This document shows, piece by piece, positions 39,701-57,361 of a stretch of 64,000 bases of DNA. The position numbers and the translations under genes are program-made. The stretch comes from Escherichia phage ECBP1. The stretch lies in sequence record NC_018854.1; one strand, given 5' to 3'. The stretch's first letter is position 1; every line of letters begins with the position of its first letter. Under the pieces are notes generated by a model. The model saw nothing but the letters and a program-made list of their open reading frames with translations, ran no database searches and was not told where the DNA came from.

Positions 39701-41427
39701 TGAATAGCTTCTACACGGTTAGTGGAACCAGAAACAGCTTCACGGATTGCTGGGTTAGTTTGTTCCAATTCTACCGGGTCAAACTTCATTGCTTGAGTTA
39801 AGTCAGCAGCATACTGGGTAGCAGCAGCTTTCTCTTCTGGAGAAATATCCATTGCATCCACTGCTTCCTGAACAGTTGCTTGAGCTTGTTCTGCCTGAGC
39901 AGTAGCTTCTTGTGCAGCAGCGTTAACCGTAGCATCAGATACGGGGGATGCTTGTTCATTACGCTTAGCAACTTCTTCCCCACGTTGAACCAGGATGTTA
40001 GTAATAGGAGAAGCTACTTTTGCTAGTGCCTTACCAGCCAAAGAAGCACCAGCCAGGGTAGTACGTACAGCAGGACCAACGGCAGCACCAGCAGCCTTAA
40101 CAGTTGCACCAGGAGCTTGAGCAACTCCAGCAGAACCGAAGCCATACAATGCACCAAGACCGGTTTGTTCACCCACACCTTTAAGCAAATCACGCTTAGC
40201 ATCTACATTACCTTGAATTGCCTTGTTCTGTGCAAACTGACTTGTACCAGACTGGATACCTTCTTCTACAGTCTCACGCAGCATGTTAGAACCAGCACCA
40301 GCCAGTGAACCTACCTTAAGTGGATTAAGTTCAAACTTGGATACCAGTGGACCAGTAAGAGCAGCAACCGGAGCAGTTAAGCCAGCAGCAGTAATACCCG
40401 TTTCAGATGCAGTCTGGCGACGTGCTTCTTCAGGAGATAAACCGTCTTTAATATGCTGTTGGTATACAGGAGATTTAGCAGCCAATTCACTGAATGGCAT
40501 TTCCATAATTTCATTAGCAGTCTGTTGGTATGCACCACCAGCTTCCATACCACCAATTGCTATAGCAGGTGCAGCAACACGACCAGTAGCTAATGCAGTA
40601 CGTGCAGGACGTGAACCTAACTCAGCAGCTAAGGTAATGCCTTTAACAGCTTTATCACCACCTACCATTACTTTACCGAGTGCAGATACACCACGAATCA
40701 ATGGACCGCCGGTAAAGAGAGAACCAACACCCTCAGCCAGACCATCAGTAGCAGCCATGCCATTGGACAAGGTGTTAGCAACAGAATCGTAAGCATCTCG
40801 ACCAATGCGAGACAGGGAAGCAACGAGATCACTTTCTCCTTTAGCAATATCCTGCTTATAGAGTTTCTCGTTTTCCTGTGCAGATATTACGTTCTGGTTC
40901 TGTACTACATTACGACGAGCATTTAATGCATCAGACTGTAGGTTGTGTACACCTTTATTCAACCAGTCAAGACCGGAAGCAATGGTTGCCCCGGCATTAT
41001 CATTGACCAAGCCTGTACCAAGAGCAGCAATGCCCCCAAGAGTATTAGCAACACCAAGACCAACACCAGAAAGGGTATCACCAAGTGCTTCACCATATGT
41101 ACGACTCTTAGTTAAATCACGACGAACAGCATTAGCTGCATTGACACGAGCATTGAGAATGTCCATTCCTTGCTCATTGCCATACTTGTTTATGATTTCA
41201 AGAGGAGAGGCATTAGTAAAATCTGCCTGAAAAGAACCTGGGTCAAATGCACCAGCACCTAAGTTACCAGCACGGCCTGCCTGTAATTGGTAAGCGTTCT
41301 GTGGGGTTAGTTGGAAGGGGCTTTGCCCTTGTTCAGCTTGTTTCCGAGAGGTTGCAGTAGAGACATCGACTTGCTTAGCAGTAGTGATGCTGTCTGCGAA
41401 ACCTGCCAGACGGTCAAATGTTGACAT
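30715..41427 (-). CDS. giant virion-encapsidated RNA polymerase (N4 gp50-like vRNAP)
   Basis: About 3570 aa single ORF; central region has T7-like RNAP-type motifs ('YVEADGVTNGPINAMVLM', 'KNPLTITIYGSGARGIAGK'); start taken at ATG 41427 (track start 41445 is TTG). Confidence 0.8.
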   Translation of the reverse strand: MSTFDRLAGFADSITTAKQVDVSTATSRKQAEQGQSPFQLTPQNAYQLQAGRAGNLGAGAFDPGSFQADFTNASPLEIINKYGNEQGMDILNARVNAANAVRRDLTKSRTYGEALGDTLSGVGLGVANTLGGIAALGTGLVNDNAGATIASGLDWLNKGVHNLQSDALNARRNVVQNQNVISAQENEKLYKQDIAKGESDLVASLSRIGRDAYDSVANTLSNGMAATDGLAEGVGSLFTGGPLIRGVSALGKVMVGGDKAVKGITLAAELGSRPARTALATGRVAAPAIAIGGMEAGGAYQQTANEIMEMPFSELAAKSPVYQQHIKDGLSPEEARRQTASETGITAAGLTAPVAALTGPLVSKFELNPLKVGSLAGAGSNMLRETVEEGIQSGTSQFAQNKAIQGNVDAKRDLLKGVGEQTGLGALYGFGSAGVAQAPGATVKAAGAAVGPAVRTTLAGASLAGKALAKVASPITNILVQRGEEVAKRNEQASPVSDATVNAAAQEATAQAEQAQATVQEAVDAMDISPEEKAAATQYAADLTQAMKFDPVELEQTNPAIREAVSGSTNRVEAIQKMADLVNTAEDPNVQMEAAIQMYDNIMSMDSFINRDPGALANLEQDSPAAAIVDQFSGLMANVQNTPKVLRAFRAIHSMIQEQAEAGKLKATEEANQAQANNIAMAADVSPEVLDADSVNMVLKHASEGKITLGNRQRAALQSAAALLQGAREFDAKAEELGLRPQDIVSKQIKTDESRSNEGQYSALQHAKRIRSAYNSGNFDLASAYLSDFMKFAQHMQNKVGALNEHLISGNADKNKSVHYQALSPSREWVRSRTGLGVNPYDTKSVKFAQQVALEAKTVADIANALATAYPELNVSHVKVTSLDSRLNKPAAQVVKEFRQGGLDATQSQQTNEPVNQVDETPALVQEDTTTVQPKDKPVVENKTAPTKETSPKAEEVSTTESERDAYVKENTISQETLNKNGDRRESPWLFADGTVVGSNGDHISLSDVFGHDGYRDMSLDTGAIRSTFYKGSEQPFVSLQLFDNQKLTAEQFNTVQSFVEANNALIQIGVDTSERNTNNVEKEEVSLAQLKADYTVGGKPLSEMETVFPVYNNDKTPNQFLKAFSLPEEPKSRTIGSESPLTDVKKALSSAARFEAFTQKENNALTSDVIKRYQDLFEFGETLKTTLSDRLAKFLANKNVGKRFAEGTEANRWVGGKLLNIVEKDGDTFKFNDQLLETAVLAGLQWRLTATQNAAVKDMKDVAAITGVEASLLPEGILADFENAQTLVEATNSLAQKIESYWGLNRNPNAPLGYTKGIPMAMATEILSSLIEMGEVKESMLDVSEIDPESNKTVGLYTIEKLDDNDAINKFPTAIEETVLLEPVEKLYLGDDIPSVAQTQLRNPAVKNTPEQKAALKAEQATEFRVHMPMVNFYEALGCDNILELMGAGALNPELLNVNTAKSLEGKNLSVSMAYDSLFGVINQIKEQENGLDTPIHYGYNMTRVGRMQMLGKNNPQSSKLVREAILPTFSTIDLSNENSQTFSDFQLGLAQALGIKVHKMSREVMSDELTKALEGKLKPAVDMMVEFDKSGHLPADAVDILKTSLGSDKSFVALMALMEYARYLNSDDRTNFNTPLYVEADGVTNGPINAMVLMTGGKFTPDWIKNTAKGGLFFGKAGKTMNEHHSHEDSVDLYEASTNGLQQALNELRSTYRNNVPVMNQMNHLQKLMDLFIKDFNLNEDGTLDLKRGIAKNPLTITIYGSGARGIAGKMVSAITDVIYERFSDVLQARAADPSISPAMAMFGKEAASEADAQAMLDTFLTSMEALTGNVPVMRKGELSIQQVDGALTGKLDPQKFTVSGNALKNLQENMLHLFVEPMRTGIRNTVGEGLMYSTENLQKATQIQSLVLQDMFQQRVQEKLAEKEKDPTWKKGDFLTQKELNEIQESLSPLAPMIETGSQTFYIAGSENTDVANQVLATNLDDRMRVPMSIYAPSQAGVAGIPFMTIGTGDGMMMQTLSTMKGAPKNTLKIFDGMNIGINDITDASRKANEAVYTSWQGNPIKNVYDSYAKFMKNVDFSKLSDKTKQAIAKSALEYDQREGATDDLLRVGAEQIERNLRNIALGVDIRHKVMNQVQVTVDQMAAVGAPYVNDGKISLEGLTVDQQVAKLNELFDAELNKRRDAVRAAKAEPAKEVPAMEQVGRVLKSGVRLLSNTAITKLAKEMSPEQQAVLKEVQKSLAAKDYKVVYGTPSQLDAYAIEKNITRPAPEDIEAAEAGNAYGWTNFDDKTIYLVTPSLETLVHELVHASTFESVLAHYEGTPNEAVQNIEDLMNQFRTLDVKNEPPAVREAYADALNTINGHLSNGFIEPAMAKAAALNEYMAWGLTNRELIGKQKKTTALKAMVQAVYEAIKRLVFGRKKAPANADDMFSGLLFNSAVVMRGQAPTAAVAKDTTLFHNKAYGDNTRLEELGKTFDKLITDYIGSEPVQQVIRKGKFSDAVVNATKVTRDVQAHGFTMNMQEQRLFTNIVAALATEAAINPAAMARAQEYYTHVTKNLTVEAFMADPDSTNPADRYYAQQKFDTIMGANNIEFDAQGRSSLLPTFVGLAMVSEEVRKVLADIPVMKADKKSGNTVDAMLTNIGTAAMASLNARVAGDTKATNVQEGMDALAQTIMQTSLNAESFYDSVATPTGNAIDRANQYLVDSIDALSTRALEGAREIAANTKNPLVKGAVHAAQLVAAIATEKNGAIVAEGVMAAMNQGKVWQPFHDLVNDIIGRTKSNASVYDLIKAVRAQVQADRQQFREHLPTTIASKFSRKLTNEEWKAMHTGMGKTDLAVLRDTMSLDEIRDLLTDQKIVDREVNKLEADLQKQAGRNWPLINRKSKQLAQYMIKGTVGNNLLRNATAISRLLGERKTTRSVVDVAQLDKLITLYALEAMNKTDREMLSSLAQTEIEGMDFATSYLVGQRKDEMAKAKSDSRATLNQYKGYIPSENKQGVNLIVAEDSQFADLIEKSYVRLGTYQGSSANRGPARSYYFAPVQAQAPFSQGILQNVRNTAGGVDLGTGFTMGTMVAGRITDKPSVDRITKALARGERGNEPLLPVYDANGNVVAYEQSIDPNMLKHIEGENHLARAIGVWRGRQVEEAKAQRFNDMLIENLHSMYENDIKMSASNKSQYVNLLGSKLDPVTADALKLMNSETRQKAESLFGPGELWVRRDMLNDALGYRAASVGDAWSGNSRWSPETLDTFKKAMLGVFGNRAYKYVMGGENLVQNLVKEAKTLIVVKSVVVPAVNFLANLYQMVARGVPVKNIAKSISQKTAEINQYLKSRLRQVDAEAELRAATNPNQIRKLKAEIQSISDSHKRLSIWPLLEAGEFSSIADAGIGRDDILITEGKLHEYMEKLADKLPKSVRNAGRYALITKDTALFQGIQKTVEYSDFIAKAIIYDELTQRKGKTREEALGRVTEEFINYDRLPGRFRGYMESVGLMWFYNFKIRSAKVAVSMIRNNPVHAAMAMLAPTPTMFGNVGLPIQDNIFSIAAQGNLGYSFGFGQGLRAHNLNPWLNLTN

Positions 41428-41490
41428 AGCATGATTCCTGTTCAAACTTATATCGTATAAGAAGATTCACTGTACAGTAAGTGAATGTAA

Positions 41491-41530: not shown

Positions 41531-43477
41531 TTATCGAGGTTGCATATAGGGAGGTAAACCCTCTGCTAATTTTCGATAACGTTTAGCTCGTTCTTCATCT
41601 TCACGACTACGTTCACGTTCTACTGAAGCATTAGAACGGAAGTTCTGTGGAACCAGATTTCCCTGGTCAGCTACCACAGTATTAACAGCAGCATCTAATG
41701 CAGCTCGTGCCCTTGCTAACTCAGCCTCACGAGCAGGGATAGTAGCAGCAAGCCCGCTTTGCCCAGCAGCTACACGACGACGAGTATCAGCAAGTAAGGC
41801 TTCTGCTTGTGTTACCTGGTTCTGAGCATTAGCAATATTACCCTGTACCTGGGTAAGAACATTATCACGAGCAGTAGCTTCAATGCCTTCCCCACGACGT
41901 ACTGAACGTGCTAGTTCTCTGGCAACGGTATCATCAATACGAATACCTCCACCACCTTCATTGGAGATGAACGGATTAAGTGCATCAAGTGCTCGACTAA
42001 TCATACCTTCCGGTACGTTGGTAGTAGACTGCTTAAGAATCTCAGCAGCTACAGCAGGAGACTGCCCGGATTCTTGCATAACATCATTGAGTCGAGCAAT
42101 CATCCATCCTTTTTCAGAACCTTTAAAAGCATCCTTAAGAAGACGGTCTGCTACTTCACCAATAGTAGAGTTGTCACGTAATGCACGAGCATAATTAGCA
42201 GTAATGGTTCCAGTGTTATCTTCAGACTGACGTGCAGCAACTGTATTGCCTGCCATGTTTGAGACTACTTGCTGAGTCTGTAACTGATCAAGGGGTGCTC
42301 CTACTTCTGCCTGTGCAATTAACTGGCGTGCTTCACTCCACGGCATATCCTTATAACCACCTACACCTAAGTCAGGCAATGCAGCCCAGGTCTTAGAAAG
42401 GTTACCATTCTTACGGTCATTGAAGATTGCTTCTGCTATTTTGTCCTGTACTTCAGGAGTCATTTGCTGATTACGCCAATCTGAACCAAGCACTTTAGGG
42501 GCATAGTCTTCCAGAGTAGCTTTATTAATCTGAAATGCACCTACAGGAGAATGACCTTGTGACGGGTTATTAATCATACTCTGTTGATGATTAGTAACCT
42601 CACCTAGTGTCATCTCAGTAATAGGCTTATCAGTAGCAGCAAAGGTATAGGTTGCATCATAAGGAGAACCAGAACGAGTACCAGCAGTTCCCGGAGCAGA
42701 GCCAGAAGGAGACGTAGCGTAAGTACCTGGGAATCTCTGGTTTACACCTCGCATGATTGCAGCACGTACACCTGGAGAAGCATTCTGCATAGCAGACTCT
42801 GCCAATGTAAGAGCATCCATAGGAGTGGAAGCACTACGGAAAATATCCGTCAGTATACCGGATGCAGCTTGTGAATCAGCATCATTACGTTGAGCCACAC
42901 CCAAATCAAAGCGGTTCTGTGCTTGGTTAATAGCCTGACCACCTTGCCCTTGAAGACGGCTCAGCATATCCAGTTGTTGGTCGGCAGGGAGTGCAGATAA
43001 TGCATCACGGGTTTGGTCCAATGCAGTATTAATACGGTTCTGGTCACCAGACTGATAAGCCTCAGACAATAAACGAATAGCTGGAGAAGCATTATCTAAT
43101 GCAGAGTCAGTATTCTGTAAACGACCAAAACGATAAGCATTGTAGTCATTAATTCCCTGCTGACCTTGTTGAGTCAGAAGAGTACTTGCTCGCTCATCCA
43201 GATTCTGCAGGGTATGTTGGTTTACGAGTGAAGGGTCAACCCCCTGGAACAATGCACCGGATGCCAGAGCATTACGATACTCAGTAGGGTCTTGATACTG
43301 CATAGCATTCATCATGACGGCATTGCCAGCCTCCTGCTTGGCAGCGTTCTGGAAGTTACCCAGTGCATCACTTAAGCCGGAGGTGGCGTTACCAATCATG
43401 TTGCCAAATGTGCGAATGCTGTCACCAACTCCAGAGAAGTTAGGTGCATCAACATTACGCCATGTAATTTGAGCCAT
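41531..43477 (-). CDS. virion internal protein (N4 gp51-like position)
   Basis: 648 aa, Gln/Ala-rich, between ejection-protein genes and vRNAP. Confidence 0.45.
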   Translation of the reverse strand: MAQITWRNVDAPNFSGVGDSIRTFGNMIGNATSGLSDALGNFQNAAKQEAGNAVMMNAMQYQDPTEYRNALASGALFQGVDPSLVNQHTLQNLDERASTLLTQQGQQGINDYNAYRFGRLQNTDSALDNASPAIRLLSEAYQSGDQNRINTALDQTRDALSALPADQQLDMLSRLQGQGGQAINQAQNRFDLGVAQRNDADSQAASGILTDIFRSASTPMDALTLAESAMQNASPGVRAAIMRGVNQRFPGTYATSPSGSAPGTAGTRSGSPYDATYTFAATDKPITEMTLGEVTNHQQSMINNPSQGHSPVGAFQINKATLEDYAPKVLGSDWRNQQMTPEVQDKIAEAIFNDRKNGNLSKTWAALPDLGVGGYKDMPWSEARQLIAQAEVGAPLDQLQTQQVVSNMAGNTVAARQSEDNTGTITANYARALRDNSTIGEVADRLLKDAFKGSEKGWMIARLNDVMQESGQSPAVAAEILKQSTTNVPEGMISRALDALNPFISNEGGGGIRIDDTVARELARSVRRGEGIEATARDNVLTQVQGNIANAQNQVTQAEALLADTRRRVAAGQSGLAATIPAREAELARARAALDAAVNTVVADQGNLVPQNFRSNASVERERSREDEERAKRYRKLAEGLPPYMQPR

Positions 43478-43489
43478 GATGGTTTCCTA

Positions 43490-43954
43490 TTAACGAGTTA
43501 GCTTATTAGCTGCAATGTAAGCATCAGCTGAAGACTGGTCACGGTTCTCTGCAACAGCACGACTACGAGCACGGTCTTCCAGTGCAGTGTTATAAGACTT
43601 AATCTGGTTGTTCAGGTTAGTGTTAGTAACACTCTTAGCAAAGTTCAACTGGTCTTTGGCTAACTTATTGGCCTGGAAACCACTATAGATACCAGCTAAG
43701 GAACCAAGTGCACCGAGTCCTAGTTGGAAGGTGGGTACATTCATACCCAACTGATTAGCTGAACCAGACAAGAAGGAAGTAGGGGAGGCTACTCCTGTAC
43801 CTGCATTCATACCAATAGCTGCACCCGGATTGTAGTTCATAGCTGGGGTATTAAAATTCTGATTGTTATTAGACATCCAAGACATAGCAGCTGGCTGTGG
43901 GGTTTGGTTGCCTGTTAAGAATGACAAATCCATAGGGATTCTCCTGTTAAACAA
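43490..43954 (-). CDS. virion protein (N4 gp52-like size)
   Basis: 154 aa; Gly/Asn/Gln-rich. Confidence 0.4.
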   Translation of the reverse strand: MFNRRIPMDLSFLTGNQTPQPAAMSWMSNNNQNFNTPAMNYNPGAAIGMNAGTGVASPTSFLSGSANQLGMNVPTFQLGLGALGSLAGIYSGFQANKLAKDQLNFAKSVTNTNLNNQIKSYNTALEDRARSRAVAENRDQSSADAYIAANKLTR

Positions 43955-46601
43955 GGTCAGTATTAAGAGTCATATCAGAGTAGCTTCCAATCATGTTTAA
44001 AGACATGTCAGCTATATCCGAACCAGTCATGAGAGTACGTGAGAGGAAAGAATCCATCGACTCCATTGACACAAATTGCATAGGGTCAATTACACCCTGC
44101 CCAGCAGTACCAAACATCTCTTCATACTGCTTATTGATTGCCATCATATCAGTATTGTACTGCTGCATTACTTTCTCTGCTTTCTGAATAGTAGCAGCCG
44201 TAGATGCATTAATATACTGGCTAATACCATTACCTACTGAACTGGTAAGCTGCATGATGTTCTGAGCATTCATCATTTCACTGGCTAAGGTAGATAAGGA
44301 TGAACCAGTAGATAGAGCAGTACCAACATTCATAGCTACCATTGAAGCAACAGCAGTAATGATAAAACCTAGCTTATCACCAAAGAGTGAAGTGGATACT
44401 TTAGTGATAATAGATACCAGAATCATTGCAGCAATGGCGTTTGCTACAGCACCTACTATTACAGCAGCTAATCCAACAAAACCGAGTGACGCCCCAACTG
44501 CTCCATATGCCCCAAGTATACCTGCACCACCAGTACCCATAGTGAATACGGATACAACGACAGCAACCACAACAACCACAATCTTAAAGGCAGATGTTTG
44601 ATACCACTTCTGCTTAACCTTCTTATATGAGTTCATCACTAAGTAGGAGCAGGCAGTGGATAGCTGAGTACTTCGAATCAGTGACATTGAACGATAGATG
44701 TTAGTATGTAGTGGAATAATGAACCCACTCTCCTCTGCATCACCCATTGCTTCGGCAACATCAATATGCACTGACTTATTCTTATATACCCTGTTATTGT
44801 GATTTAGACCCAGTACTCTAAGTTTACGGTAAGTGTTATTACCATCCTGCCAAAGCAGTTCATACTCCTGCATAGAATAGAATGTAGTGGTAACCTCTAA
44901 CTTCTTAGCTGAACCGGAGTTACTAGCAGTTCGTATGTTCTTGCGAGTAAGAGTTATATCCCCTGCATACCTGGCTCGAAGTTGTCCTTGCTTAGCACCA
45001 GACCATGCTTGCCCTGAGTGGGTAGTTTCAGATACGTAATTCCAACCAATGGTCATGTCATACTTGTAATGCTTATTACTATGTACCCTAAATTCTCTCT
45101 TAGGTATGACTGGGTATTCTGGCAGTGGTGGAGGAGTTCCAATAGTGTGCCCTTCAGTCCTATTCCACCATTCTACATATGCATCAACTGCATCATTAGC
45201 TGCCTGATAACCTGCAATCACTGCCTCCAAGGTTGGATAGGTTGGGTCAGGTGGGAATGCTTCAGTAGCCATCTGAAAGAAACGGTAGATGTATTCCTTA
45301 GCAGTATCTTCAGGAGTATTAAGAGATACGCCAAATGTGCCATAAATGTACTGAATATCACCTATATCATCATTCTTCTTAAGCTCTGTTACTACCTTAT
45401 CAATTTTTCCACCGGTAGCTTTATAAAGAGCTTTCTTACAGTATGGATAGATTGGGTCATTCTCTACCCATTGTTTATCGTTCCTGATTGGAATAAATGG
45501 ATAGAATCGATTATCGGTAGCCTCAGTATCGAACAGTGAGTCTAGTGCAACGTTACCAGAGTTCTGCTTATAGATAAGCATCTTAGGTGTACCAACAGCA
45601 GTCATCTCTGTATCTGTACGAGTAGTCTGGGAGGAATACTTACGAACCAGTGTCTCTGTGGTTGTAGTAATTGTATCAGTACGAGTAACACCACCACCTA
45701 TATCAACTACGTTGGTAGTTACAGTAGTGCTGGATTGAATCTCACCAAACTTTTTATGAGTCATTACCCTGTCAGATACAACTACAGTTACATCATCGGG
45801 TTTCTCAGTGAATCCTTTACGGTAAACCTTAACGTAAGAGTTCCAGTTATCCACACTTGGTTCAGTGACAGTATTGTCTTCATCTGGTCTACCATCAGAG
45901 TAAACAGAGTGAGTATGTATGGTCTTAGTAAGGTTAGTTGTATTAGCTGTTGTATCACTTGATATGGTAGTCCATAGCAAAGTGGAAGGTAAGTCACCCT
46001 CACTATCATAGACAGTAGTCGGTCCTACTACCGGTGGATTGGTAGAGGGAGATTTATAGAAAGAGTAATCAGCATAGAGATACAAAGCACCTGGTTCAAA
46101 GTTAGTAGGTGTGAATTTAATAGTAGAACCACCATCCAGGGAGGTCATAGTAATTTCATTAGTATCTTCATTGATGTCTATGTCGAATCGTTCCATGATT
46201 CGACTAGGAGCATTTTCATAAAGATATTGGGCACACCATTGCTCAAAGTCAGCAAAGCCAATTTCTGCTGCCTGAACATAGACAGACTCTCCAGCAGGTG
46301 GTGTAATTTGACCCTCTATAACAGTAGGGTCAATCTTAGCCAATACACCCAACGAAGAACCAGCCATACCAACTTCTGAATCATAGTGGTTCTTACTCCA
46401 GCTGGAGAACAATCGCATACGAATACCAGGTCCATTCAGATAACTATCAGAGATAGTGTCTGCCATAGTGAATCCTGTATTGGAAACAATGTTACCGATG
46501 ACTACAGTCTTCATATAGTTAGGACGTTTGTGTATATCCCCTGCCATGTTATAGACAGAGGATGCTACGTATACTTTAGTCTTCCCACTGAATAAGCCCA
46601 T
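43947..46601 (-). CDS. large virion protein with long hydrophobic segments (putative ejection/channel protein)
   Basis: 884 aa; C-terminal 'KIVVVVVAVVVSVFTMGTGGAGILGAYGAVGASLGFVGLAAVIVGAVANAIAAMILVSIITKV'. Confidence 0.45.
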   Translation of the reverse strand: MGLFSGKTKVYVASSVYNMAGDIHKRPNYMKTVVIGNIVSNTGFTMADTISDSYLNGPGIRMRLFSSWSKNHYDSEVGMAGSSLGVLAKIDPTVIEGQITPPAGESVYVQAAEIGFADFEQWCAQYLYENAPSRIMERFDIDINEDTNEITMTSLDGGSTIKFTPTNFEPGALYLYADYSFYKSPSTNPPVVGPTTVYDSEGDLPSTLLWTTISSDTTANTTNLTKTIHTHSVYSDGRPDEDNTVTEPSVDNWNSYVKVYRKGFTEKPDDVTVVVSDRVMTHKKFGEIQSSTTVTTNVVDIGGGVTRTDTITTTTETLVRKYSSQTTRTDTEMTAVGTPKMLIYKQNSGNVALDSLFDTEATDNRFYPFIPIRNDKQWVENDPIYPYCKKALYKATGGKIDKVVTELKKNDDIGDIQYIYGTFGVSLNTPEDTAKEYIYRFFQMATEAFPPDPTYPTLEAVIAGYQAANDAVDAYVEWWNRTEGHTIGTPPPLPEYPVIPKREFRVHSNKHYKYDMTIGWNYVSETTHSGQAWSGAKQGQLRARYAGDITLTRKNIRTASNSGSAKKLEVTTTFYSMQEYELLWQDGNNTYRKLRVLGLNHNNRVYKNKSVHIDVAEAMGDAEESGFIIPLHTNIYRSMSLIRSTQLSTACSYLVMNSYKKVKQKWYQTSAFKIVVVVVAVVVSVFTMGTGGAGILGAYGAVGASLGFVGLAAVIVGAVANAIAAMILVSIITKVSTSLFGDKLGFIITAVASMVAMNVGTALSTGSSLSTLASEMMNAQNIMQLTSSVGNGISQYINASTAATIQKAEKVMQQYNTDMMAINKQYEEMFGTAGQGVIDPMQFVSMESMDSFLSRTLMTGSDIADMSLNMIGSYSDMTLNTDLV

Positions 46602-46602
46602 A

Positions 46603-47445
46603 TTAGTTCAGCCCGTTGTTAGTCTTCAGCTTGGTCAAAATGGTATCAATACTTGCGTTAGTGAAACCATTAGGAGGATTCAAGCCTTCATCAATAGTCT
46701 TCTGTGTAATCCATGCATCAGTAAACAACTTAGATGCTTTGACTTCTGCATCACGTTGGTAAGAAGTAATCTGTTGAGAGTACAACTCTTTCTGTTTACC
46801 TACAGAACCAGTAACAGTAGCACCATCACTACGAGTATCCAGTGTCTGTGCACGTTGTGCTTCTGTCTGCTCAGTAAGCAATTTAAGCTGTTGAGGTAAC
46901 ATCTGATTAGCATTAAACAATGCAGCACAATACGTCTCAGACTCAGTAGCAATCTTCATCTTAGTAAGAGCGTATTCACTCTTAGCAGACAATGCCTGAA
47001 TCTTAGCCAGTACAAACTGAGCCTTAGAAGTAGCCAGTTGAACACGAGCAGTAACTGCCTGAATCTGTGCCATAGCAGCAGCCCAGTATGCCTGGTCACG
47101 TCCAAGTAAGAACTGAACAGCATTACTCATGCATGATTCCATCATAGCAATGTATGCTTTGGTATATTCACCACCAGTAATACGGTTAGCTTTAAACTCA
47201 GCTTTAAGGTGATTGTGAGCAGATTCCATTAATGCATCAAACGTACCACTGCCTCCTACTTCACGGGTAGTAAGAGATTCATTGGTTATTTTAGTAATAG
47301 CCCCAAAGATTGGAGAATCATCTCCACCAGGGATATCCCATTCAGGACCAGACATATCAATATCAGGAAGGGTAAAGTCATCACCCTTAGTTAACTCTTC
47401 TAGGAGTCGGTTAGCTTCTACCTCAGCAGAACAAGACATAATCAT
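46603..47445 (-). CDS. virion structural protein
   Basis: 280 aa, coiled-coil-like Ala/Gln-rich centre. Confidence 0.4.
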
Positions 47446-48224: not shown

Positions 48225-49427
48225 TTACAGAGGAGCAACAGTCTTAATCAGAGCCAGACGTTCTGGACGTTTAACCAGGATACCATAGTACCACTTGATA
48301 GAACTGAAGCCAGTTTCGCCATACGGGTCATTACGGTCAGCAGTTTCTTTACCCGGCATCTTAGTCATGATGGTGAACTTAACAGACTTACCATCAGTCT
48401 GGAAGCCAATGGTAGAGAAGGAGTCATCACCAACTACCAGCATCGGGAATACGTCGTAGTGTTCCTGACCAGATACCATAGAGGTACGGTAACCCGGGTT
48501 AGTAGTAACCTGAGCACCAGCACCTGCCCAATGCAGCATCTCTGGAACCTGGATGATACGGAACTTATCAATACAACCAATTTCACCATTCATCAGAGTA
48601 CCAGCATCAGCATAGTGCTGAACTTCGATGAATGCTTTATTACCAAACAGGTCTTTCATCGCTTTCAGTTCTGGAACCAGTTCAGAACCAACGTACATTA
48701 CACGAGTACCACCGAGTACTTTGGTATCTGTCAGTTTAGAACCAGTGATGATAGTAGTCTGGGTCGGGGTACGGTTCTCAGTAAGAATCTGGTCAAGACG
48801 CATCAGGTTCTTATAAGAAACTACAGACGGGGTAGAACCTTCACCAGTAATGGTAGCATCAGAGACGGCAGCACCTGCATACAGTACAGTACCAGCAGCA
48901 GCCAGCAGGTCTTTCTGGAGAACAGCTTCAGTCAACTGTACAGCACCGTTCATCAGTTCACGAGACAGGTGTTCTTTCAGTTGGTCATCAGAATCAAAGT
49001 CCAGGGACTCTTGAGTAAATTCGTAGAAGAAGCCGAATTTATGAATAGAGCCTTCACGAGCCAGACGAGTAAAGCCTACACGGTTAACACGACCACCATT
49101 CTCTGACAGCAGAGGCAGTTTAGAAGTGATGTTACCAACGTCTTTGGAAGAGCCATAAAGGTTACCGTTAACGATGGTAGCACCATTAGCATCAATACCC
49201 TGGTCGTTAATGTTCTTATCGTCGAGCAAAGGAACATACTCGTACACCTTAACAGTCTTACCGTAGTTCTTCGGCATGTTAACGGTGTTAGCCAGAGGCA
49301 TAAAATACTGGTCTTTACGAGACTGAATAATAGCCTTCTTCAGCCAGTAATAGGTATTCATCTGGTCGGAACCAGCACCATCAATGCTAGATTTCTGACC
49401 GTCAATTGGAGCGTTATAGTTTAACAT
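48225..49427 (-). CDS. major capsid protein (N4 gp56-like)
   Basis: 400 aa, matching N4 MCP size, downstream of scaffold-like gene; strong RBS. Confidence 0.6.
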
Positions 49428-49443
49428 ATCATCTCATTCCTGT

Positions 49444-50664
49444 TTAAAGACTACCCGGTACTGGGAGTTTAGCGAAATCTTCATCACTCATAGCGAGTGG
49501 GTTTACAATAGGCGTTGCTTTACGTGTAGCAGCCCGATTAAGGGAAGCTGCTTTAGCTTGCTCACTGTTAGCCAGAGTCTGCTTAGGTTGTGCTACACGC
49601 ACTACCGGCTGAACTGCTGGTTTAACTGCTTGTACTGGTTCAGGCTTAGACACTTGGTTAAATGCTCCCTGCTGTGCAAGAAGGTTACCAACGTAGTTAT
49701 AAGCCTGAATAAACGGAGTACCTACCGGAATCTGACCTAACACCTGAAGACGATTCACTTCATTAGCAATGGTGTCATAAATACCATTCTCACGCTGTTC
49801 GTGAATGGTGTGGAGTAAGCCACGATTCTGATAAAGAGCATCTTTACTGGCAGCATCCCATGTCGAGCTAATAACACCTAATGTAGCTTGTCCTTCTTGA
49901 GTAGACTTTAAGTCGTCAATTTCGGTTGCAAAATCTGCTTCGGTGTCTGTAACACGGTGTTTGCCACCCTGGTAGTTAATTTCCTCTTCCGGATTAAAGT
50001 CCAGAGGATCTGTACCAGAGTCTTTCAACAACTTTTTAATGGCTTCAGGATTCTTCTTATCCAGGTCAATCAGGAAAGAAAGTTTTTCCTCATCCATTAA
50101 ACCGTTGTTCTGTAACATCAGCATTACCTTACGGTACGGCTGAAGTTCTTGCATCTTACGAGTATAGTTAGCACCCATCTGCATCAGGCTAATGGCCTCC
50201 TCCGGTGAACGGGGAGTAATCATTTTGCCGTTAGCTTTAAAAGGAGCCATCAACTTCTCATAACCTTCCTTATAGTTGAAGTCAGCAGGCAGACCTTCAG
50301 ACTGTTTGCCTTCTTCTTTCTGTTCCTGGCCTGGTTCAGCAGTAGAAGGTTCAGCTTCAGTAATCGGCTTACCGTTACTATCAACTTCTGTGTCAACAAC
50401 TTTATCATCAACTTTATCAGAAGTTAAAGAATTTGCTGAATCATCTTCATCTGCGTCAGTTTCGGGGGAGGTTTCTTCGGTTGGTAGGTCTTCAACAGCA
50501 GGGGTGTCAATTTCTTCATCAGGAGTCTGTACGCCATTGGTTTCTGGGTTGTTCTGAGTGGAAGTATCTTCCTCAGCAATAATAGCTGGGGCTTCCATAT
50601 TCAGAATCTCATCATCCGACATTGCGAGAATGTCGGAAGCTGTGGTTGCAGCTTCCGTAGTCAT
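49444..50664 (-). CDS. putative scaffolding protein
   Basis: 406 aa, strongly acidic N-terminal half, located between portal and capsid genes. Confidence 0.45.
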   Translation of the reverse strand: MTTEAATTASDILAMSDDEILNMEAPAIIAEEDTSTQNNPETNGVQTPDEEIDTPAVEDLPTEETSPETDADEDDSANSLTSDKVDDKVVDTEVDSNGKPITEAEPSTAEPGQEQKEEGKQSEGLPADFNYKEGYEKLMAPFKANGKMITPRSPEEAISLMQMGANYTRKMQELQPYRKVMLMLQNNGLMDEEKLSFLIDLDKKNPEAIKKLLKDSGTDPLDFNPEEEINYQGGKHRVTDTEADFATEIDDLKSTQEGQATLGVISSTWDAASKDALYQNRGLLHTIHEQRENGIYDTIANEVNRLQVLGQIPVGTPFIQAYNYVGNLLAQQGAFNQVSKPEPVQAVKPAVQPVVRVAQPKQTLANSEQAKAASLNRAATRKATPIVNPLAMSDEDFAKLPVPGSL

Positions 50665-51041: not shown

Positions 51042-53312
51042 TTATAAGTTCATACCAAGAGCCGATGCTGGGTCTTGGCTAGGGTCATAAAATTGGGAAC
51101 TAAGAGAATAAGTCGGGTCTTGCTGTGCAGCTAAGTCACGTTCCTGTAAAGAGTTCCCGTTAGTCAAAGCGTTATATCCGACAGCAGCAGATATGTTGGG
51201 GGTAGTTTCACCTTCTTTAGTAGGTGTTGTCAACGCCTTAGTTATTTGAAGGTTCTGGTTTCCTTGAGATTGTGCTTTTTGTTTTTCCATATCACGAGCA
51301 TGTTTAGTACCAGATTCCTGTTCCAGATAATCCAGGTCTTTAAGGTCACCACTAGAAATAGCTTCTTTAGCCTTAGCATTATTGAGTGCAATCTTACTTT
51401 TCAACTCTTCATTCTCAAGCTGTGCTTTTTGAATTGCCAATTGCTTAAGCTGTTCTTCCATAGGGTCTGGTTGTGGTCGCCAGGTACGTAATTCATGAGC
51501 AAGGTCTGGCATACGCTTAAGTTCTGCAATTTTAGCTACGAGAGATAATGTAATAGTCTGGTCAACTGTATTACCTAACGTTTGAACCATGAAGCTCAAG
51601 TCCTGAGATTTCTGGTTATCAATTTCAGCAGTATTAATATCAACCTCAATATCGAAATTACCTTTAAGGTCTTCACGGTTAATTTCTACGTACTGTTCAT
51701 TGGTAATACGTACTACTTCCTTCTCAGATAAGAATACGGCATTCATTGCACAAATCTTAGTACCAATGTCTGCCATACCCTTAGCTAATCGACGAAGGAT
51801 TGCCATCTCACGTTTGGATGCTGCATCGAGTGCACCACGAATACCAGCAGCCACATCTCCATAAGCTGCACCAGTTACACCTCCAGAGAATGCTTTAACA
51901 CCAGTTAGTGCTTCTGCTTCCTGGTTCTGCATCTGAGTCATAACTATTGCCGACTGAGGTAACTCAGGGAACTTATGTTCCATAATGGCCTGACTAGGGT
52001 TGCCCTGCATTGGGTTATACTCATAGTCTTGTCCGTCATCATATCGACGTCGGTTCAGAGTATCTAACATCCCTTTAGGATAACCACGCTGCCCGTTTGC
52101 ACTTCGACCTAACAGGTCAATCATCCCACGCATAGTTGCACCAAGAATTGCTTGGTTATCTCCTAACAATTCTGCATCTGCTTCACCGTAGAGTTCACGT
52201 TTACGTGGCATGTATGGAACAACTACCAAAGGTAACTTACCATCAGGGAATGGGTTCTTCTCCATACGAATAAGAGTAGAACCAATCCAGGTAGCAACAA
52301 TCGGTTCCAGTGAACCATCATCATTAATGTCGTAAAATCCCCAGTATTCATAAGCGACTACTTTCTTACGTAGTGCATCTTTAAACTGGAAGTCACCAGG
52401 AGTTTTACTTTCATGGTCTGGGTCAGTCATAGGACTGGAACTTTCCCAGTCAATCTTATCCAAATTGTGATAACGGTCTTTGTTCTTCATGAGGTCTGCT
52501 TTGCACGTCTCAAACGAGATAACTGCATACAGAGCCTTGTCCAAATCACCATTACAACTCGGGTCAATAACTACGTTATTAGGATTAAGCATTTCAACAG
52601 TAGGTCTGTTAACCAGTGCCTTCTCTACCTCTACCTCAGTAACTCCAGTCTGGATTGCATAAGTAGCTTCTCCAGTTTCATTGAAGTAGTTAACAGCTTC
52701 CTTAATATCTTCCGGCATTGTTTCGTCATACTCACGGGGATTTTCTGCCTGAAGCTGTAAAGCCTGCTGAAGAATATCTGCTTGTTCCTGGTTCTCAATT
52801 GGATACAACTGGAAGACTGGTGTTTCTGTTTTAATCTTAACGGTCTTACGTTCCCAACCAATACGGGCAATACCAGTACCATCATCTACGACACTATGTA
52901 CGTAATCATCCACCAGTTTTACTTTATTAAGCTGGGTACGGAATTGGTAGTTAAGAACTAATTCATTCTGTCGTGCAGCTAACTCATCCTCAAAAGTAAC
53001 AGGGGTTACCTTAAAGAGTTTATTAGATGAGAGAAATGGTTCAGATAATGGTGCATAACGCCACTCTGCCTGACGGCGAACCAGTCTAGGTTGGACTTGT
53101 GAGCGTCCTTTAACCTTTGGGGGTTTAGCCTTGCCTTTGACTTCCATCAAGTCATTCCACTCACGAATCTGAGCCATGATTGCATCGTGAGCAGGTTTAG
53201 CTGATTCCAAATCACCCTTCAGTAATTGGATACTTGGTTCCTTCTTCCAGTCCGTTAACTTCTCTGATTGAGCCGGGTCTGGTAAAGGCTTAAAAGTGTC
53301 TTGGTGTTCCAT
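51042..53312 (-). CDS. portal protein (N4 gp59-like)
   Basis: 756 aa (N4 portal about 760 aa); position upstream of scaffold/capsid. Confidence 0.6.
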
Positions 53313-53314
53313 AG

Positions 53315-53821
53315 TTATTCCTGTTCAAAAAGTTTACGGTCAGCCTGAATCTGTTTACCCAACTCAATTAGTTGGCTGTCACGGAGTCTAACAGTTGCCC
53401 GGAGTTCTTCAACCAAACGTCTGCCTTCTTCAAGACTGTTGTCGAGTCTGGCTGCATGGCTTGCAAGACTTCTGCACTCAAAGGTTCCGGCTTCGGCTTG
53501 ACGTTTATATACCGATGCTCGTCTTTCAGACTGTTGCATCCGGCTGTCATAATCACTGCTAACGCGAGCAAGCTCGCTTGCGTAATTACTCTCAGCCGTC
53601 TGCAACCGGGAAGTGAGTAACCCGACTTCGTAACTATGGTTTCTTTGGAGAGCATTGTATTTGTCCTGTAATTTTTGTAGTGCCTTCTGATCTTCAACCT
53701 TTTGGGCATCCCACTTCTTTTGAACAGTAGACTGTCCATTGGAATTACCCCAAAAGTAAATGGTGGCCCCGAGGACCACCACCAGAAGATAAGGCCAACC
53801 TTTAGAGATTAGCATCTTCAT
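53315..53821 (-). CDS. i-spanin (Rz-like)
   Basis: N-terminal TM '[16 protein letters not shown]' then coiled-coil periplasmic domain; start taken at internal Met. Confidence 0.55.
53368..53655 (-). CDS. o-spanin (Rz1-like lipoprotein) nested in +1 frame of i-spanin gene
   Basis: Signal peptide + lipobox-like '[12 protein letters not shown]' then Pro-rich mature region; fully embedded in i-spanin ORF. Confidence 0.45.
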   Translation of the reverse strand: MLSKETIVTKSGYSLPGCRRLRVITQASLLALAVIMTAGCNSLKDEHRYINVKPKPEPLSAEVLQAMQPDSTTVLKKADVWLKNSGQLLDSVTAN

Positions 53822-54437
53822 TACATGCCTCCAGTGGCACATTGCCTATTCGGTTAGCTACCCAACCATACGTAAAGTCTGGCATGTTTAATGAGGTGTA
53901 GTGGTTAAGTTGTTTAGCATCAAGTAACTTAATCATTACCTGACATGCTGCAACTTTGCCTCGTTTTTTCTGTAATGCTTTATATGCATTAACAGTACTT
54001 GTACCGACTTTACCATCAACCTGTATTTTAGGGTAGTCTTTGCCATCACGGGACATTTCATTAAGAGATTGCTGCAACCACTTAGCCGGACGGGTTACAC
54101 CCGTATTAACACCAGCATCTACCAGCTTATGTGTTACAGCAGGAGATATATCAGCGAAGGCTACGAAGTTAGGCTTAAGTACGTAATCATCAATGTATAT
54201 CTCAGCAGCCATCTCTTTAGATAAACCCTTCATAGAACCATCCCAGCCATACTCAGTAGCCAGAACTTCTTTGTGAGATTTAGCTACAGCTTGGGTAATA
54301 CCATGATTGGTTTCACCACCTGGGTCACGAGGATTATTTACATATCCCCCTTCCATATAAAACACTGCCCCCAGGATAGCAGCGACAACTCCTCCCACTG
54401 CACCACCTTTCGTAGCAAGTTTCTGTTTAGCTTTCAT
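53802..54437 (-). CDS. endolysin: GH108 N-acetylmuramidase with possible N-terminal SAR signal-anchor
   Basis: 'EGGYVNNPRDPGGETNHGIT' GH108 signature; Gly/Ala-rich weakly hydrophobic N-terminus 'KGGAVGGVVAAILGAVF'. Confidence 0.75.
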   Translation of the reverse strand: MKAKQKLATKGGAVGGVVAAILGAVFYMEGGYVNNPRDPGGETNHGITQAVAKSHKEVLATEYGWDGSMKGLSKEMAAEIYIDDYVLKPNFVAFADISPAVTHKLVDAGVNTGVTRPAKWLQQSLNEMSRDGKDYPKIQVDGKVGTSTVNAYKALQKKRGKVAACQVMIKLLDAKQLNHYTSLNMPDFTYGWVANRIGNVPLEACNEDANL

Positions 54438-54687
54438 GTGAATCTTCCTTTGATCGGAATCGTATTAATCTGCCTACAATATTTAAGGCAAACAGCGCGA
54501 TTGCAATATTGGAACCATGGGGAATATCTTCCAGGATGTGACGAGGTAATCCTGTCAGCATTGGTTGAATGATATCTATGGTAGAAAACATAATTAACCC
54601 GAGCGTACTAATCTGGATGGATGCCCACTTCCAGCATCTTTTCCAGTTAGGTACTAACTCTACTTTTCTTTTTAGCCTGCGAACCAT
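54427..54687 (-). CDS. putative holin (two TM segments)
   Basis: Hydrophobic 'WASIQISTLGLIMFSTIDII' and 'IAIALFALNIVGRLI'; adjacent to endolysin. Confidence 0.4.
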   Translation of the reverse strand: MVRRLKRKVELVPNWKRCWKWASIQISTLGLIMFSTIDIIQPMLTGLPRHILEDIPHGSNIAIALFALNIVGRLIRFRSKEDSHES

Positions 54688-55001
54688 GCGAATATCTCCC
54701 GTCTTGCAGCAGCCAATACACCAATAATTGCACCTGCCCCAGCCCACACCCACTTACCAAAAATTCCAGCACCAACAACTTTATGCTTAATGGTGATGAA
54801 CTCTTCAATAGTAGGTTCATTCTTAGCTAAGCTATCCTCCACATTTTTTAGTCTATTGCCTATGTCATTGATTGAATCCCGTAGTTCTACCAGAGTTTCC
54901 TCCAGCTTCTCACGATCCTGCCTGTCCCTTGTCTGGTTCTCAAACAGAGTCTTCAATCGTTCCTCCAGTCTGACTAGAAGCAGTTCACCTGATTCATTCA
55001 T
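54672..55001 (-). CDS. lysis-associated membrane protein (coiled-coil N-terminus, C-terminal TM)
   Basis: C-terminal 'VVGAGIFGKWVWAGAGAIIGVLAAA'; position at head of lysis cassette. Confidence 0.35.
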   Translation of the reverse strand: MNESGELLLVRLEERLKTLFENQTRDRQDREKLEETLVELRDSINDIGNRLKNVEDSLAKNEPTIEEFITIKHKVVGAGIFGKWVWAGAGAIIGVLAAARREIFAWFAG

Positions 55002-55246: not shown

Positions 55247-57361
55247 TTAAATCAATCCGTAAACTGCATTGTGTATTACGACGCCCCCAACAACTGAAGA
55301 AACATTAAAATTAATTTCAGCTTTGTAGGCTCCTTGTGGAACGCAATCCACCAAAGCATAAAAGTTGAACGTGTTTACCACTGGGATGATATATCCTATG
55401 GAATCCGCAACAGCATTTCCTTGCTGGTCCAGGAATCTAATTGACGCCAGGGTGGTTGTTGTATTTTTAGCCCAAAAACCAAGCTGAAAATAACGACCCG
55501 GTTCACAATCAATGATTGTTTGAGTGAAGTTAGCTGCTGCATCTGCTGATGGTACAGATAAAACAAAAGAAGTTGTAAACATTAAATCGTTAGGAACATC
55601 GTTTGCTGTAGTAGCAGTGACAGCACCTGTTCCAGTTTGAGAGAGTGTCCAGTTAGATGTATTTCCAAACTGTCCTGAGCCATTGCTAATACTATTAATA
55701 TAAGGGCTTACAATGCTTCCTAGATTCCAGTTAGTTGTAATAAAGCCTGCACGAGGGAAGCACCCTCTAGACATTACTTTCTTGCTAGAGCCACCTATCA
55801 ACTGTCTTGTGGCAAATCCAGTAGCAATCGTTGTGTTACCGTAGAGGGGCAATGAGCAGTTATTTAAACTAACTACCCCGTCACCATTACTAGCAATAGG
55901 CACTGTACTGTAGCCTTCCGGAAGCAGAATAGTAGAATCTTTAATACTGAGGCGTGAGCTTCCACTCACAGTAAAGCCTACAAAGCTCTGCCCAGGTTGA
56001 TACTCAATATTACCGTTAGCAAATACTAGGGTAGCATTATCACTTAATGCCACTGCTGGATCGAAGTAGCCTGCCTTTTTACCTGCTGGTAATGAGCATG
56101 AATCAAAGATGAACTGCCCATTCTCAAAAGTAAATGGACCCCCATTATCAACCATCCAGCAGTGGTTGAATTTTATAACCTCACCAGTATTAGCCGGGGA
56201 ATTAAAGATTACAGAGTTAGTAAAACTGCGAGAAATAGTGCACTTATCAAATAGAATACGGTATGCATTATCTTTAAACTCAATACCTGCGGTAGATATA
56301 AACCCACAGTTAGATATACGTAATTCTGCTATCTCCCCTCCAGTACTACTACCCAAACACATCTTTCGAGTACCTTTACCTACAAAGGAAATACCTGTTA
56401 ATAGGGCAGTAGCATTAATGGCATCACGAGCTGTGTAATCCGTATTAGAGTTGATTATGGTTAAGTAATACTCTCCTGTTACACCTTCCAGTTCCGTAAG
56501 GGTACACTTATTAGCTCCTACTAAAGCCCCCTTAGCTACATCCAGTAAGATAGGTGTACTGATAGTCCCTGATGTAGGTACAAGACAATCGTAACCGGCA
56601 GAGTTTACCTTGTTAATGAATGGGGCAATATCCCCCGTACCAGTATAACCTGCATCATATACCGTAGCAGTACCTTCAAAGAACTTACGCTTCCAGACCA
56701 CACCTGCACCGGTGAAAGTTACAACTTCATCTACAGGAGTAGTATTAGGAACCGCAATCATAATACCCCCACCAACGGAAGAGCCTGAGTATGAATCTAG
56801 CATTACACTAGACCCTACTGTTGCTCCGACAGAAGCCAGGGCAGTTACGTCAGGTACACTACCAATTAAGGTCATACCATCCTGAGATGCCAACTGAGCA
56901 CGCAAATTAGGATCCGTTTGAGACTTCCAGTCCGTGTTGCCAACAGGGTTGGTCCCTTCAACAATAGTTACGGGTAGAGAACCTAAGTAGGTATAACCAA
57001 TACCATTATGCATCAAAAGCTCATTTCGAGTATTTACTACTAAGCCCGTAGTAAATGAATCAGATAAGCATACAAACTCTCTACGTGCAGCAGCCAGTTC
57101 ACCCAAATCAACTGTACCTGCTGAATGAACCAAGACTGCATGTTCACTGAGACTTACAGCAATGGTTCCTGCTGGAAGTACAGGCAATGAGTAAGCACGT
57201 TGAGTAGTCTTGTCATAAATGACTTTGTATCCACCCAAGTCTACTCCTACAGAAAAGTAGACCACTTCATTCTGCTTAATACCAAACTTACGGGCAATGG
57301 CTTGCTTGTTGGTAAGAATACCAGTGGAACCTTTACCGCCTTGACTGAACATCTCGTTCAT
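55247..57361 (-). CDS. tailspike/receptor-binding protein with predicted right-handed beta-helix (pectate-lyase-like)
   Basis: 704 aa; repetitive Gly/Asn/Thr/Ser-rich beta-strand pattern 'ISNCGFISTAGIEFKDNAYRILFDKCTISRSFTNSVIFN'. Confidence 0.5.
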   Translation of the reverse strand: MNEMFSQGGKGSTGILTNKQAIARKFGIKQNEVVYFSVGVDLGGYKVIYDKTTQRAYSLPVLPAGTIAVSLSEHAVLVHSAGTVDLGELAAARREFVCLSDSFTTGLVVNTRNELLMHNGIGYTYLGSLPVTIVEGTNPVGNTDWKSQTDPNLRAQLASQDGMTLIGSVPDVTALASVGATVGSSVMLDSYSGSSVGGGIMIAVPNTTPVDEVVTFTGAGVVWKRKFFEGTATVYDAGYTGTGDIAPFINKVNSAGYDCLVPTSGTISTPILLDVAKGALVGANKCTLTELEGVTGEYYLTIINSNTDYTARDAINATALLTGISFVGKGTRKMCLGSSTGGEIAELRISNCGFISTAGIEFKDNAYRILFDKCTISRSFTNSVIFNSPANTGEVIKFNHCWMVDNGGPFTFENGQFIFDSCSLPAGKKAGYFDPAVALSDNATLVFANGNIEYQPGQSFVGFTVSGSSRLSIKDSTILLPEGYSTVPIASNGDGVVSLNNCSLPLYGNTTIATGFATRQLIGGSSKKVMSRGCFPRAGFITTNWNLGSIVSPYINSISNGSGQFGNTSNWTLSQTGTGAVTATTANDVPNDLMFTTSFVLSVPSADAAANFTQTIIDCEPGRYFQLGFWAKNTTTTLASIRFLDQQGNAVADSIGYIIPVVNTFNFYALVDCVPQGAYKAEINFNVSSVVGGVVIHNAVYGLI

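Follow-up and report, generated by a model that had tools for sequence, protein, structure and literature searches.

In coliphage N4, whose asymmetric tail tip, the 'tail-gating complex', was solved in a 2025 preprint by Bellis et al. (PDB 9YFT; PMC12633501), gp53 is a single-copy tail plug seated outside the mouth of the tail tube in a 12:6:1 symmetry mismatch. Here we describe the ortholog of this protein in the window, by which we mean the whole 64,000-nucleotide stretch of Escherichia phage ECBP1 (sequence record NC_018854.1) that was analysed, and which is the genome sequence of an N4-like podovirus (Schitoviridae). An 884-residue protein encoded there carries a very long hydrophobic stretch, which a preliminary description had taken to mark an ejected protein that inserts into the host envelope and forms the channel through which DNA and the giant virion RNA polymerase (vRNAP) pass. 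We believe that the gene is most probably that of the tail plug in a G7C/Bp4-like schitovirus, and that the best-supported account of the hydrophobic stretch is that it forms the hydrophobic half of the plug's cork.

Much is now known about the N4 plug. Six short helices of gp53, from residues 29-56 and 670-716, interweave as a 'hydrophobic knot' that closes the tube like a cork; the sheath protein gp65 clamps the plug from without by its domains D9-D10, and the model stops at residue 724, where the last ~160 residues vanish into the tail lumen that they share with gp52 (PMC12633501). Plug density is seen on full and empty particles alike, the emptied particles that retain it having released their DNA in vitro and not into a cell, and gp53 has been detected in N4 by liquid chromatography-mass spectrometry (LC-MS) (PMC12633501). 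The authors propose that the plug is displaced laterally and can re-bind, that its C-terminus acts as a 'ripcord' for luminal gp52, and that the conduit consists of gp52, gp51 and the N-terminal domain of vRNAP; in planar bilayers, both gp51 and gp52 act as channel formers (PMC12633501). We give the roles of gp51 and gp52 jointly because the abstract of that preprint, which makes gp51 the outer-membrane complex and gp52 the periplasmic tunnel, is contradicted by its results, discussion and Figure 7 legend, where the assignment is the opposite (PMC12633501). In Pseudomonas phage DEV the equivalent plug is gp74, 'conserved in N4-like phages', again single-copy with a 12:1 mismatch, and a receptor-binding fibre made of gp56, gp55 and gp54, with LptD as its receptor, stabilises it (mBio 2026, PMC12892993). 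The DEV paper also cites Zheng et al. 2025 (Structure 33:1250) for N4 gp53 as the plug (PMC12892993).

The gene at issue and the parts of its product discussed below are as follows.

43947..46601, minus strand: probable tail plug gene, 884 aa, N4 gp53 ortholog
46434..46517, minus strand: residues 29-56, putative N-terminal half of the knot, two helices (N4 mapping, 71% identity; AlphaFold2 helices)
45600..45971, minus strand: residues 211-334, predicted 'feather' protrusion of four Thr-rich beta-strands (AlphaFold2; 24% Thr)
44442..44582, minus strand: residues 674-720, putative hydrophobic half of the knot (N4 mapping, 66% identity; published structure)
44307..44582, minus strand: residues 674-765, whole hydrophobic region with four transmembrane-like segments (hydropathy scans; conservation)
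43950..44417, minus strand: residues 729-884, C-terminal tail (invariant residues; AlphaFold2 helical at low predicted local distance difference test score, pLDDT)

The open reading frame (ORF) at 43947..46601, stop codon included, is real and opens with ATG; it lies on the minus strand, since the plus-strand translation of the same interval is full of stops, and a plus-strand reading was rejected. The long hydrophobic stretch of the preliminary description is confirmed, and both strings it quoted occur in the protein, VVVVVAVVVSVF spanning residues 675-686 and GTGGAGILGAYGAVGASLGFVGL residues 689-711. The N-terminus MGLFS (46587-46601, minus strand) is a family-wide feature, M1 being invariant and G2 and F4 kept in at least 90% of 86 sequences. 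The annotated starts of the homologs in phage Pollock (record 2670-2730) and Vibrio phage JA-1 (record 2772-2800) lie 18 and 8 codons 5' of this motif and are probably too early, because both precede the conserved MGLFS. Residues 1-8 of gp53 are without a model in the N4 structure (PMC12633501). MGLFS also resembles a eukaryotic N-myristoylation signal, presumably by coincidence in a phage.

By phmmer, the protein matches chain FA of 9YFT (Gp53 of coliphage N4) with E=0 over residues 1-883. Both proteins are full-length, 885 residues in N4 against 884 here, they are 54% identical, and their genes occupy the same slot between the tube and gp52 genes. The match to DEV gp74 (9ZE4 chain M, 'N4 gp53-like protein') is weaker, at E 1e-17, and its best stretch, query residues 601-867, is exactly the hydrophobic region and the tail; DEV gp74 differs in being 740 aa long and only 12-14% identical in structural alignments. 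PHROG 2220 matches the protein end to end (E=0), and Pfam has no family for it or for the gp51-like, gp52-like or tube proteins encoded beside it. The closest phage record is that of Escherichia phage Bp4 (98.5%), and the ortholog in phage KP8 is 57% identical. In the Bp4 record the match falls in two pieces on two proteins annotated as hypothetical, so that this record may contain a frameshift.

Both halves of the N4 knot can be placed on this protein, the mapping being made with a one-residue variant of N4 gp53 (P0053): N4 residues 29-56 correspond to residues 29-56 here (71% identical), 670-716 to 674-720 (66%), and 724, where the N4 model stops, to 728. The hydrophobic run that the preliminary description singled out thus starts exactly where the N4 knot does, since N4 670-716 maps to 674-720. 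Identity to N4 is highest in the tube-facing parts, with 89% over residues 1-28, 71% over 29-56, 74% over 601-673, 66% over 674-720 and 76% over 721-765, and lowest in the external parts, residues 57-340 and 481-600, at 38-42%. This pattern, in which the parts that would touch the tube are the most conserved and the outer parts the least, supports the plug.

The hydrophobic stretch itself is unmistakable. Residues 674-733 form a 60-residue run without D, E, K or R, a run that would be expected ~0.004 times in a protein of this length at 18.4% charged residues, so chance does not explain it; a second uncharged run spans 744-774, and a fourth hydrophobic segment, 744-765, follows a short loop, TKVSTSLFGDK. 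The stretch is 14% Gly and 17% Ala. We scanned 19-residue windows for the Kyte-Doolittle mean and for the summed energy on the Hessa biological scale, and four of them are of membrane-spanning grade (1.7-2.6, and -0.7 to +2.7 kcal/mol): 671-689 (2.5; +0.4 kcal/mol for 674-692), 695-713 (1.7; +2.6), 714-732 (2.6; -0.7) and 745-763 (1.7; +2.7 for 744-762). Among the virion proteins scanned in the window none comes near the plug maximum of 2.6, the values being 1.76 for vRNAP, 1.08 for the gp52-like and 0.76 for the gp51-like protein, and the plug also exceeds the holin, the spanin and the signal of the signal-anchor-release (SAR)-type endolysin in hydrophobicity. The stretch is not C-terminal, as had been thought: it starts 211 residues and ends ~120 residues before the C-terminus, and the ~120 residues downstream are mostly polar. 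Its 'Gly-zipper-like' character survives in part. Small-xxx-small spacing is no more frequent than in composition-matched shuffles (15 observed against 13.2 expected, p=0.28; also p=0.21), so the zipper-like look is largely an effect of composition and we reject a glycine zipper as a distinct motif; even so, 90% or more of 86 homologs keep the residue at certain individual Gly, Asn and Ala positions.

Those positions are G694, G697, G703, G707, G710, A713, G717, N721, A724 and A725, and the hydrophobic region as a whole ranks with the best-conserved parts of the plug family. In a set of 25 diverse homologs the mean column conservation over residues 667-733 is 0.65 and charged residues make up only 2%, and the 118 homologs of at least 650 aa all have 2-5 hydrophobic segments, with a median uncharged run of 64 and always 86-164 residues after it. 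The tail that follows has invariant residues of its own (G831, E847, R855, T856 and G860 in the 86 homologs) and ends in a conserved motif, E..FL.RTLMTGSD. Even the most distant homologs fit this picture. Pollock gp62 and JA-1 gp56 are only 24-27% identical to the plug, their tblastn alignment reaching only residue 674, and they retain the KWYQ-GIFKV motif, three hydrophobic segments and, near the tail end, the hydrophobic-x-x-R motif (FFTRTL in Pollock, MYLQRKI in JA-1). The two knot halves, namely the N-terminal helices and the hydrophobic stretch that comes after the KWYQ motif, are present here with a tail of ~150 residues behind them, and they are conserved in 86-118 homologs and also in those of only 24-27% identity. 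A profile of the C-terminal module (residues 640-884), searched against 1.84 billion cluster representatives, found 2198 of them at E<=1e-3 and 636 at E<=1e-30; in all of the best 150 of the 2198 the module stands at the protein C-terminus, mostly in proteins of 670-970 aa, which fall into two size classes of ~740 and ~890 aa, along with some shorter entries that are probably truncated.

With 86 homologs as input, AlphaFold2 gave a model that is confident over residues 10-662, where a mixed alpha/beta core carries four strands of 24-31 residues (211-234, 241-269, 272-302 and 305-334; pLDDT 80-90), and the fold of the tail plug, a globular core with a long beta-sheet protrusion, is predicted for this protein too. 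Helices are predicted at 29-40 and 46-55. From residue 663 to the end the model is poor (pLDDT 34-60, and 34-50 at 688-805); its low-confidence helices (pLDDT 34-50), computed with the tail tube absent, break at Gly-rich spots, as H670-689, H699-705 and H711-. The conserved Gly, Asn and Ala residues and the helix breaks in the model would fit short packed helices better than lipid-exposed spans.

This last point bears on a reading in which the segments are true transmembrane helices inside the infected cell, tethering the protein to the inner membrane while tails are assembled, or serving lysis or exclusion, and are merely incidental in the virion. A Lys-rich cluster, KKVKQKW, precedes the first hydrophobic segment, as in an N-in membrane anchor, and four segments would keep both soluble ends on one side of the membrane. 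The conserved Gly, Asn and Ala point the other way, to a specific packed fold, and in N4 virions the modelled segments fold with residues 29-56 as a lipid-free knot (PMC12633501). The lysis genes of the phage are, moreover, separate and complete (holin, SAR-type endolysin and spanin, 53315-54753), and no precedent is known for a polytopic membrane protein extracted into a tail tip. We regard an inner-membrane role as exceedingly improbable.

By homology with N4, the copy number of the plug, the conformation of its knot and the gating mechanism in this phage would be as follows. Consider a mature particle in which one copy of the plug caps the 12-fold tail tube. Residues 1-662, comprising the globular core and the long beta-sheet 'feather', would sit outside the tube, and the hydrophobic stretch at 674-720 would fold back onto the N-terminal helices at 29-56, the short helices of both parts packing into a compact knot lodged in the mouth of the tube. 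The knot would seal in the DNA and the ejection proteins, and the remaining ~155 residues would run up the tail lumen. Upon receptor engagement the plug would shift sideways and its C-terminal tail, the 'ripcord' of the N4 authors, would be pulled out; gp52, gp51, and then vRNAP and DNA would exit, and the trans-envelope channel would be built. A functional parallel is the tail needle (gp26) of P22 and Sf6, the textbook plug of podoviruses, which does the same job, sealing the tail channel after packaging and being displaced on receptor engagement (PMC11445570). The needle differs in being a trimer, a coiled-coil fibre that lacks a hydrophobic stretch and enters along the symmetry axis, whereas the plug here would be monomeric and globular and would close a 12-fold tube by means of a hydrophobic helical knot. 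We found no sequence or fold match between the two.

Several points weigh against this account of the plug. The knot is deduced from a 3.6 Å focused map of N4 that was interpreted with an AlphaFold model, in a preprint, and its fold is not independently predicted here, because pLDDT reaches only 34-50 at 688-805. The sheath that clamps the N4 plug is absent in this phage, so the trigger step cannot be identical to that in N4. Finally, four segments of transmembrane grade exceed what a cork needs, and this leaves room for a second, membrane-related role.

One form of such a role would be that the protein is a plug in the virion and that, once dislodged, its knot unravels and putatively inserts in the outer membrane, where it anchors the tail tip or nucleates the gp52/gp51 channel. 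Such a role would come on top of the tail plug, not in its place, and it is compatible with the published model. In its favour, transmembrane-grade hydropathy and summed Hessa energies close to zero are seen in four segments of 19 residues or more, the gp51-like and gp52-like proteins are without a classical hydrophobic segment, the region is conserved in all subfamilies sampled, whatever their receptor-binding partner, and low AlphaFold2 confidence is as expected of a context-dependent, metastable element. In phi29 and T5, the gp9 tail-knob loops and the hydrophobic segments of pb2, the latter an example of the C-termini of siphovirus tape-measure proteins, obstruct or occupy the tube and afterwards pass into the membrane; these elements, present in 3-6 copies and reported to form a membrane pore, lie in the distal tube lumen and meet the membrane first, and no homology between them and the plug was detected. 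The knot of N4 likewise sits where the tube opens distally, at the end turned toward the cell surface (PMC12633501), and for the KP8 ortholog Phobius predicted four transmembrane helices, as was noted in 2019 (PMC6950046). Set against this, N4 plug density persists on empty particles, albeit ones emptied in vitro, lateral displacement and re-binding have been proposed for it, and N4 gp51 and gp52 form bilayer channels without gp53 (PMC12633501). We consider the additional step a tentative idea, and a rather unlikely one.

The genes around the plug bear on the channel that the preliminary description had in mind, and are listed here.

51042-53312, minus strand: portal
49444-50664, minus strand: N4 gp57-like ORF, 406 aa (PHROG 2120, 'tail length tape measure protein')
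48225-49427, minus strand: major capsid protein
46603..47445, minus strand: tail tube, 280 aa, N4 gp54 ortholog (phmmer)
43490..43933, minus strand: gp52-like ejection protein, 147 aa (phmmer)
41531..43477, minus strand: gp51-like ejection protein, 648 aa (phmmer, N4 '66 kDa protein' 11mn_A, E 8e-114; PHROG 6126, virion structural protein)
30715..41445, minus strand: vRNAP, 3576-aa ORF, last of the tube-plug-gp52-gp51-vRNAP block

The order on the minus strand is portal, a 114-aa ORF, the gp57-like ORF, major capsid, a 213-aa ORF, tube, plug, gp52-like, gp51-like and vRNAP, and the block from tube to vRNAP has the same order in N4, Pollock and JA-1. The preliminary description had correctly placed the gene between the capsid genes and that of vRNAP; its immediate neighbours are the tube upstream and the gp52-like and gp51-like genes downstream. 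The tube gene, whose product matches the Moo19 tail protein (9d80_C, E 5e-150), N4 Gp54 (9yf4/9yft, E 2e-124) and the DEV gp75 tail tube (E 7e-20), ends 1 nt from the plug start codon. The gp52-like protein matches the N4 '16.5 kDa protein' (9yf4_OA, E 6e-45) and also the DEV 'N4 gp52-like protein' (8vxq).

The description was also right to call the product a virion protein, as its orthologs attest: N4 gp53 by LC-MS and structure, gp70 of Moo19 (gp53-like; a Shigella phage of the same subfamily, Enquatrovirinae) by mass spectrometry (PMC11654681), and the plug protein conserved in DEV and LIT1 by virion proteomics (PMC12892993). Likewise the protein sits on the exit route of DNA and vRNAP. What did not hold is the mechanism, namely an internal protein that is ejected and whose helices oligomerise in the envelope as the conduit for DNA and vRNAP. 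This reading could appeal to the transmembrane-like hydropathy, to a gene block shared with the ejection proteins and vRNAP, and to the C-terminal ~155 residues, which lie inside the tail lumen in N4 (PMC12633501). A conduit of this kind calls for several copies, however, and in N4 and DEV the ortholog is present only once (mismatches of 12:6:1 and 12:1); the N4 protein lies largely on the outside of the tube and stays on particles that have emptied (PMC12633501), and the four helices of a single copy cannot line a ~35 Å channel. In N4 the channel role rests experimentally on gp51, gp52 and the N-terminal domain of vRNAP, and orthologs of all three proteins are present here; in DEV it is assigned to gp72/gp73. 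The comparison with known ejection proteins (gp14/gp15/gp16 of T7, gp52/gp51 and the gp50 N-terminal domain of N4, gp73/gp72/gp71 of DEV) is instructive in this respect. They belong to the same gene block and the same delivery step as the plug, but they come in multiple copies, reside in the capsid or lumen until they are expelled, and have been shown to form pores in bilayers, whereas gp53 is single-copy, mostly external and retained. In the N4 knot, moreover, the hydrophobic region comes close to being buried in a fold, an outcome that the preliminary description itself had named as speaking against its proposal. The tail-tip structures of N4 and DEV have thus already largely refuted the ejected channel, which we now consider highly improbable, and its mechanism should be replaced by a tail plug with a hydrophobic knot.

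Some further observations concern these neighbours. The listed gp52-like ORF (154 aa) begins with TTG at 43954, overlapping the plug stop; its true start is likely the ATG at 43933, which is preceded by AGGAG and lies 13 nt past the plug stop, and the alignment to N4 gp52 begins at residue 8 of the listed ORF. Its product has an 87-residue uncharged stretch, but a polar one, rich in N, Q, G, S and A; neither it nor the gp51-like protein has a transmembrane-like segment, against four in the plug. Residues ~290-330 of the gp51-like protein ('ITEMTLGEV...SPVGAFQINKATLEDY') recall the Glu...S-x-x-G-x-x-Q signature of lytic transglycosylases, and we rejected this motif (E...SPVGAFQI) as Pfam gave it no support at E<=10, the only match being to PDGLE (E 0.075). 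None of the N4 ejection proteins appears to have peptidoglycan hydrolase activity (PMC12633501). The tape-measure label of PHROG 2120 describes an unlikely role for a gene between portal and capsid in a short-tailed phage, and was probably carried over in error.

On the far side of the portal the window holds the lysis cassette, which lies between the portal and tailspike genes, followed by the tailspike and its adaptor.

53315-55001, minus strand: lysis cassette, with spanin (175 aa), endolysin (211 aa), holin (108 aa) and a 109-aa ORF
55247-57361, minus strand: tailspike, 704 aa (residues 20-704 match CBA120 TSP4, 5w6h, E=0)
57409-58542, minus strand: gp66-like adaptor, 377 aa (B2 Gp49, 9d83; Moo19 9d80_D)

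The endolysin has an N-terminal Gly/Ala-rich, SAR-like hydrophobic segment at residues 7-25, and the 109-aa ORF a C-terminal one at 80-98. The tailspike and adaptor genes lie between the lysis genes and the head-to-tail adaptor, and here the phage departs from N4: no gp64 or gp65 homolog was found in this phage, and their slot holds the TSP4-like tailspike and the gp66-like adaptor. The first ~230 residues of the tailspike match the N-terminal module of G7C gp63.1 (4qnl), and the first ~60 of the adaptor match the N-terminus of the N4 '60 kDa protein' (9lc0/9yf4, N4 tail structures). The receptor-binding clamp that the gp65 sheath provides in N4 is therefore missing here; such a clamp is an accessory of particular lineages, not a defining trait of the plug family. 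Since there is no N4-type sheath, the clamping partner of the plug must differ from that of N4, and the low sequence conservation of the outer surface would fit a different partner; a different partner, or none, is possible in this lineage.

One consequence can be imagined for the G7C/Bp4-like phages. Because nothing homologous to N4 gp65 or to the DEV gp56-55-54 clamp holds the plug, the plug may itself be the final sensor, and putatively a membrane harpoon as well, its core or feather touching the outer membrane and its knot inserting and seeding the gp52/gp51 channel. In such a scheme the tailspikes would first clear the O-antigen, the exposed core or beta-feather would then meet the outer membrane, and the released four-segment knot would enter it as a single-copy anchor. 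CBA120 TSP4 presumably targets the O78 O-antigen of E. coli, and Bp4 is, we assume, a phage of O78 avian pathogenic E. coli (APEC). We think it unlikely, on balance, that the plug acts as sensor and harpoon in this way.

Regardless of how the plug is released in this lineage, the long hydrophobic stretch is a feature already known and is explained by the structural literature of 2025-26. The value of the present assignment lies mainly in annotation. A homolog of the plug is found in 276 phage records, and among 40 sampled most are labelled 'hypothetical protein' and one, in Burkholderia phage HN04, 'baseplate wedge protein'; PHROG 2220 itself is labelled 'unknown function'. The orthologs in N4 and DEV are now solved as a plug that gates the release of DNA and the giant vRNAP, and the tail seal is an unusual one, in which a single asymmetric protein closes a 12-fold tube with short greasy helices tied in a knot, as would most probably be the case here.

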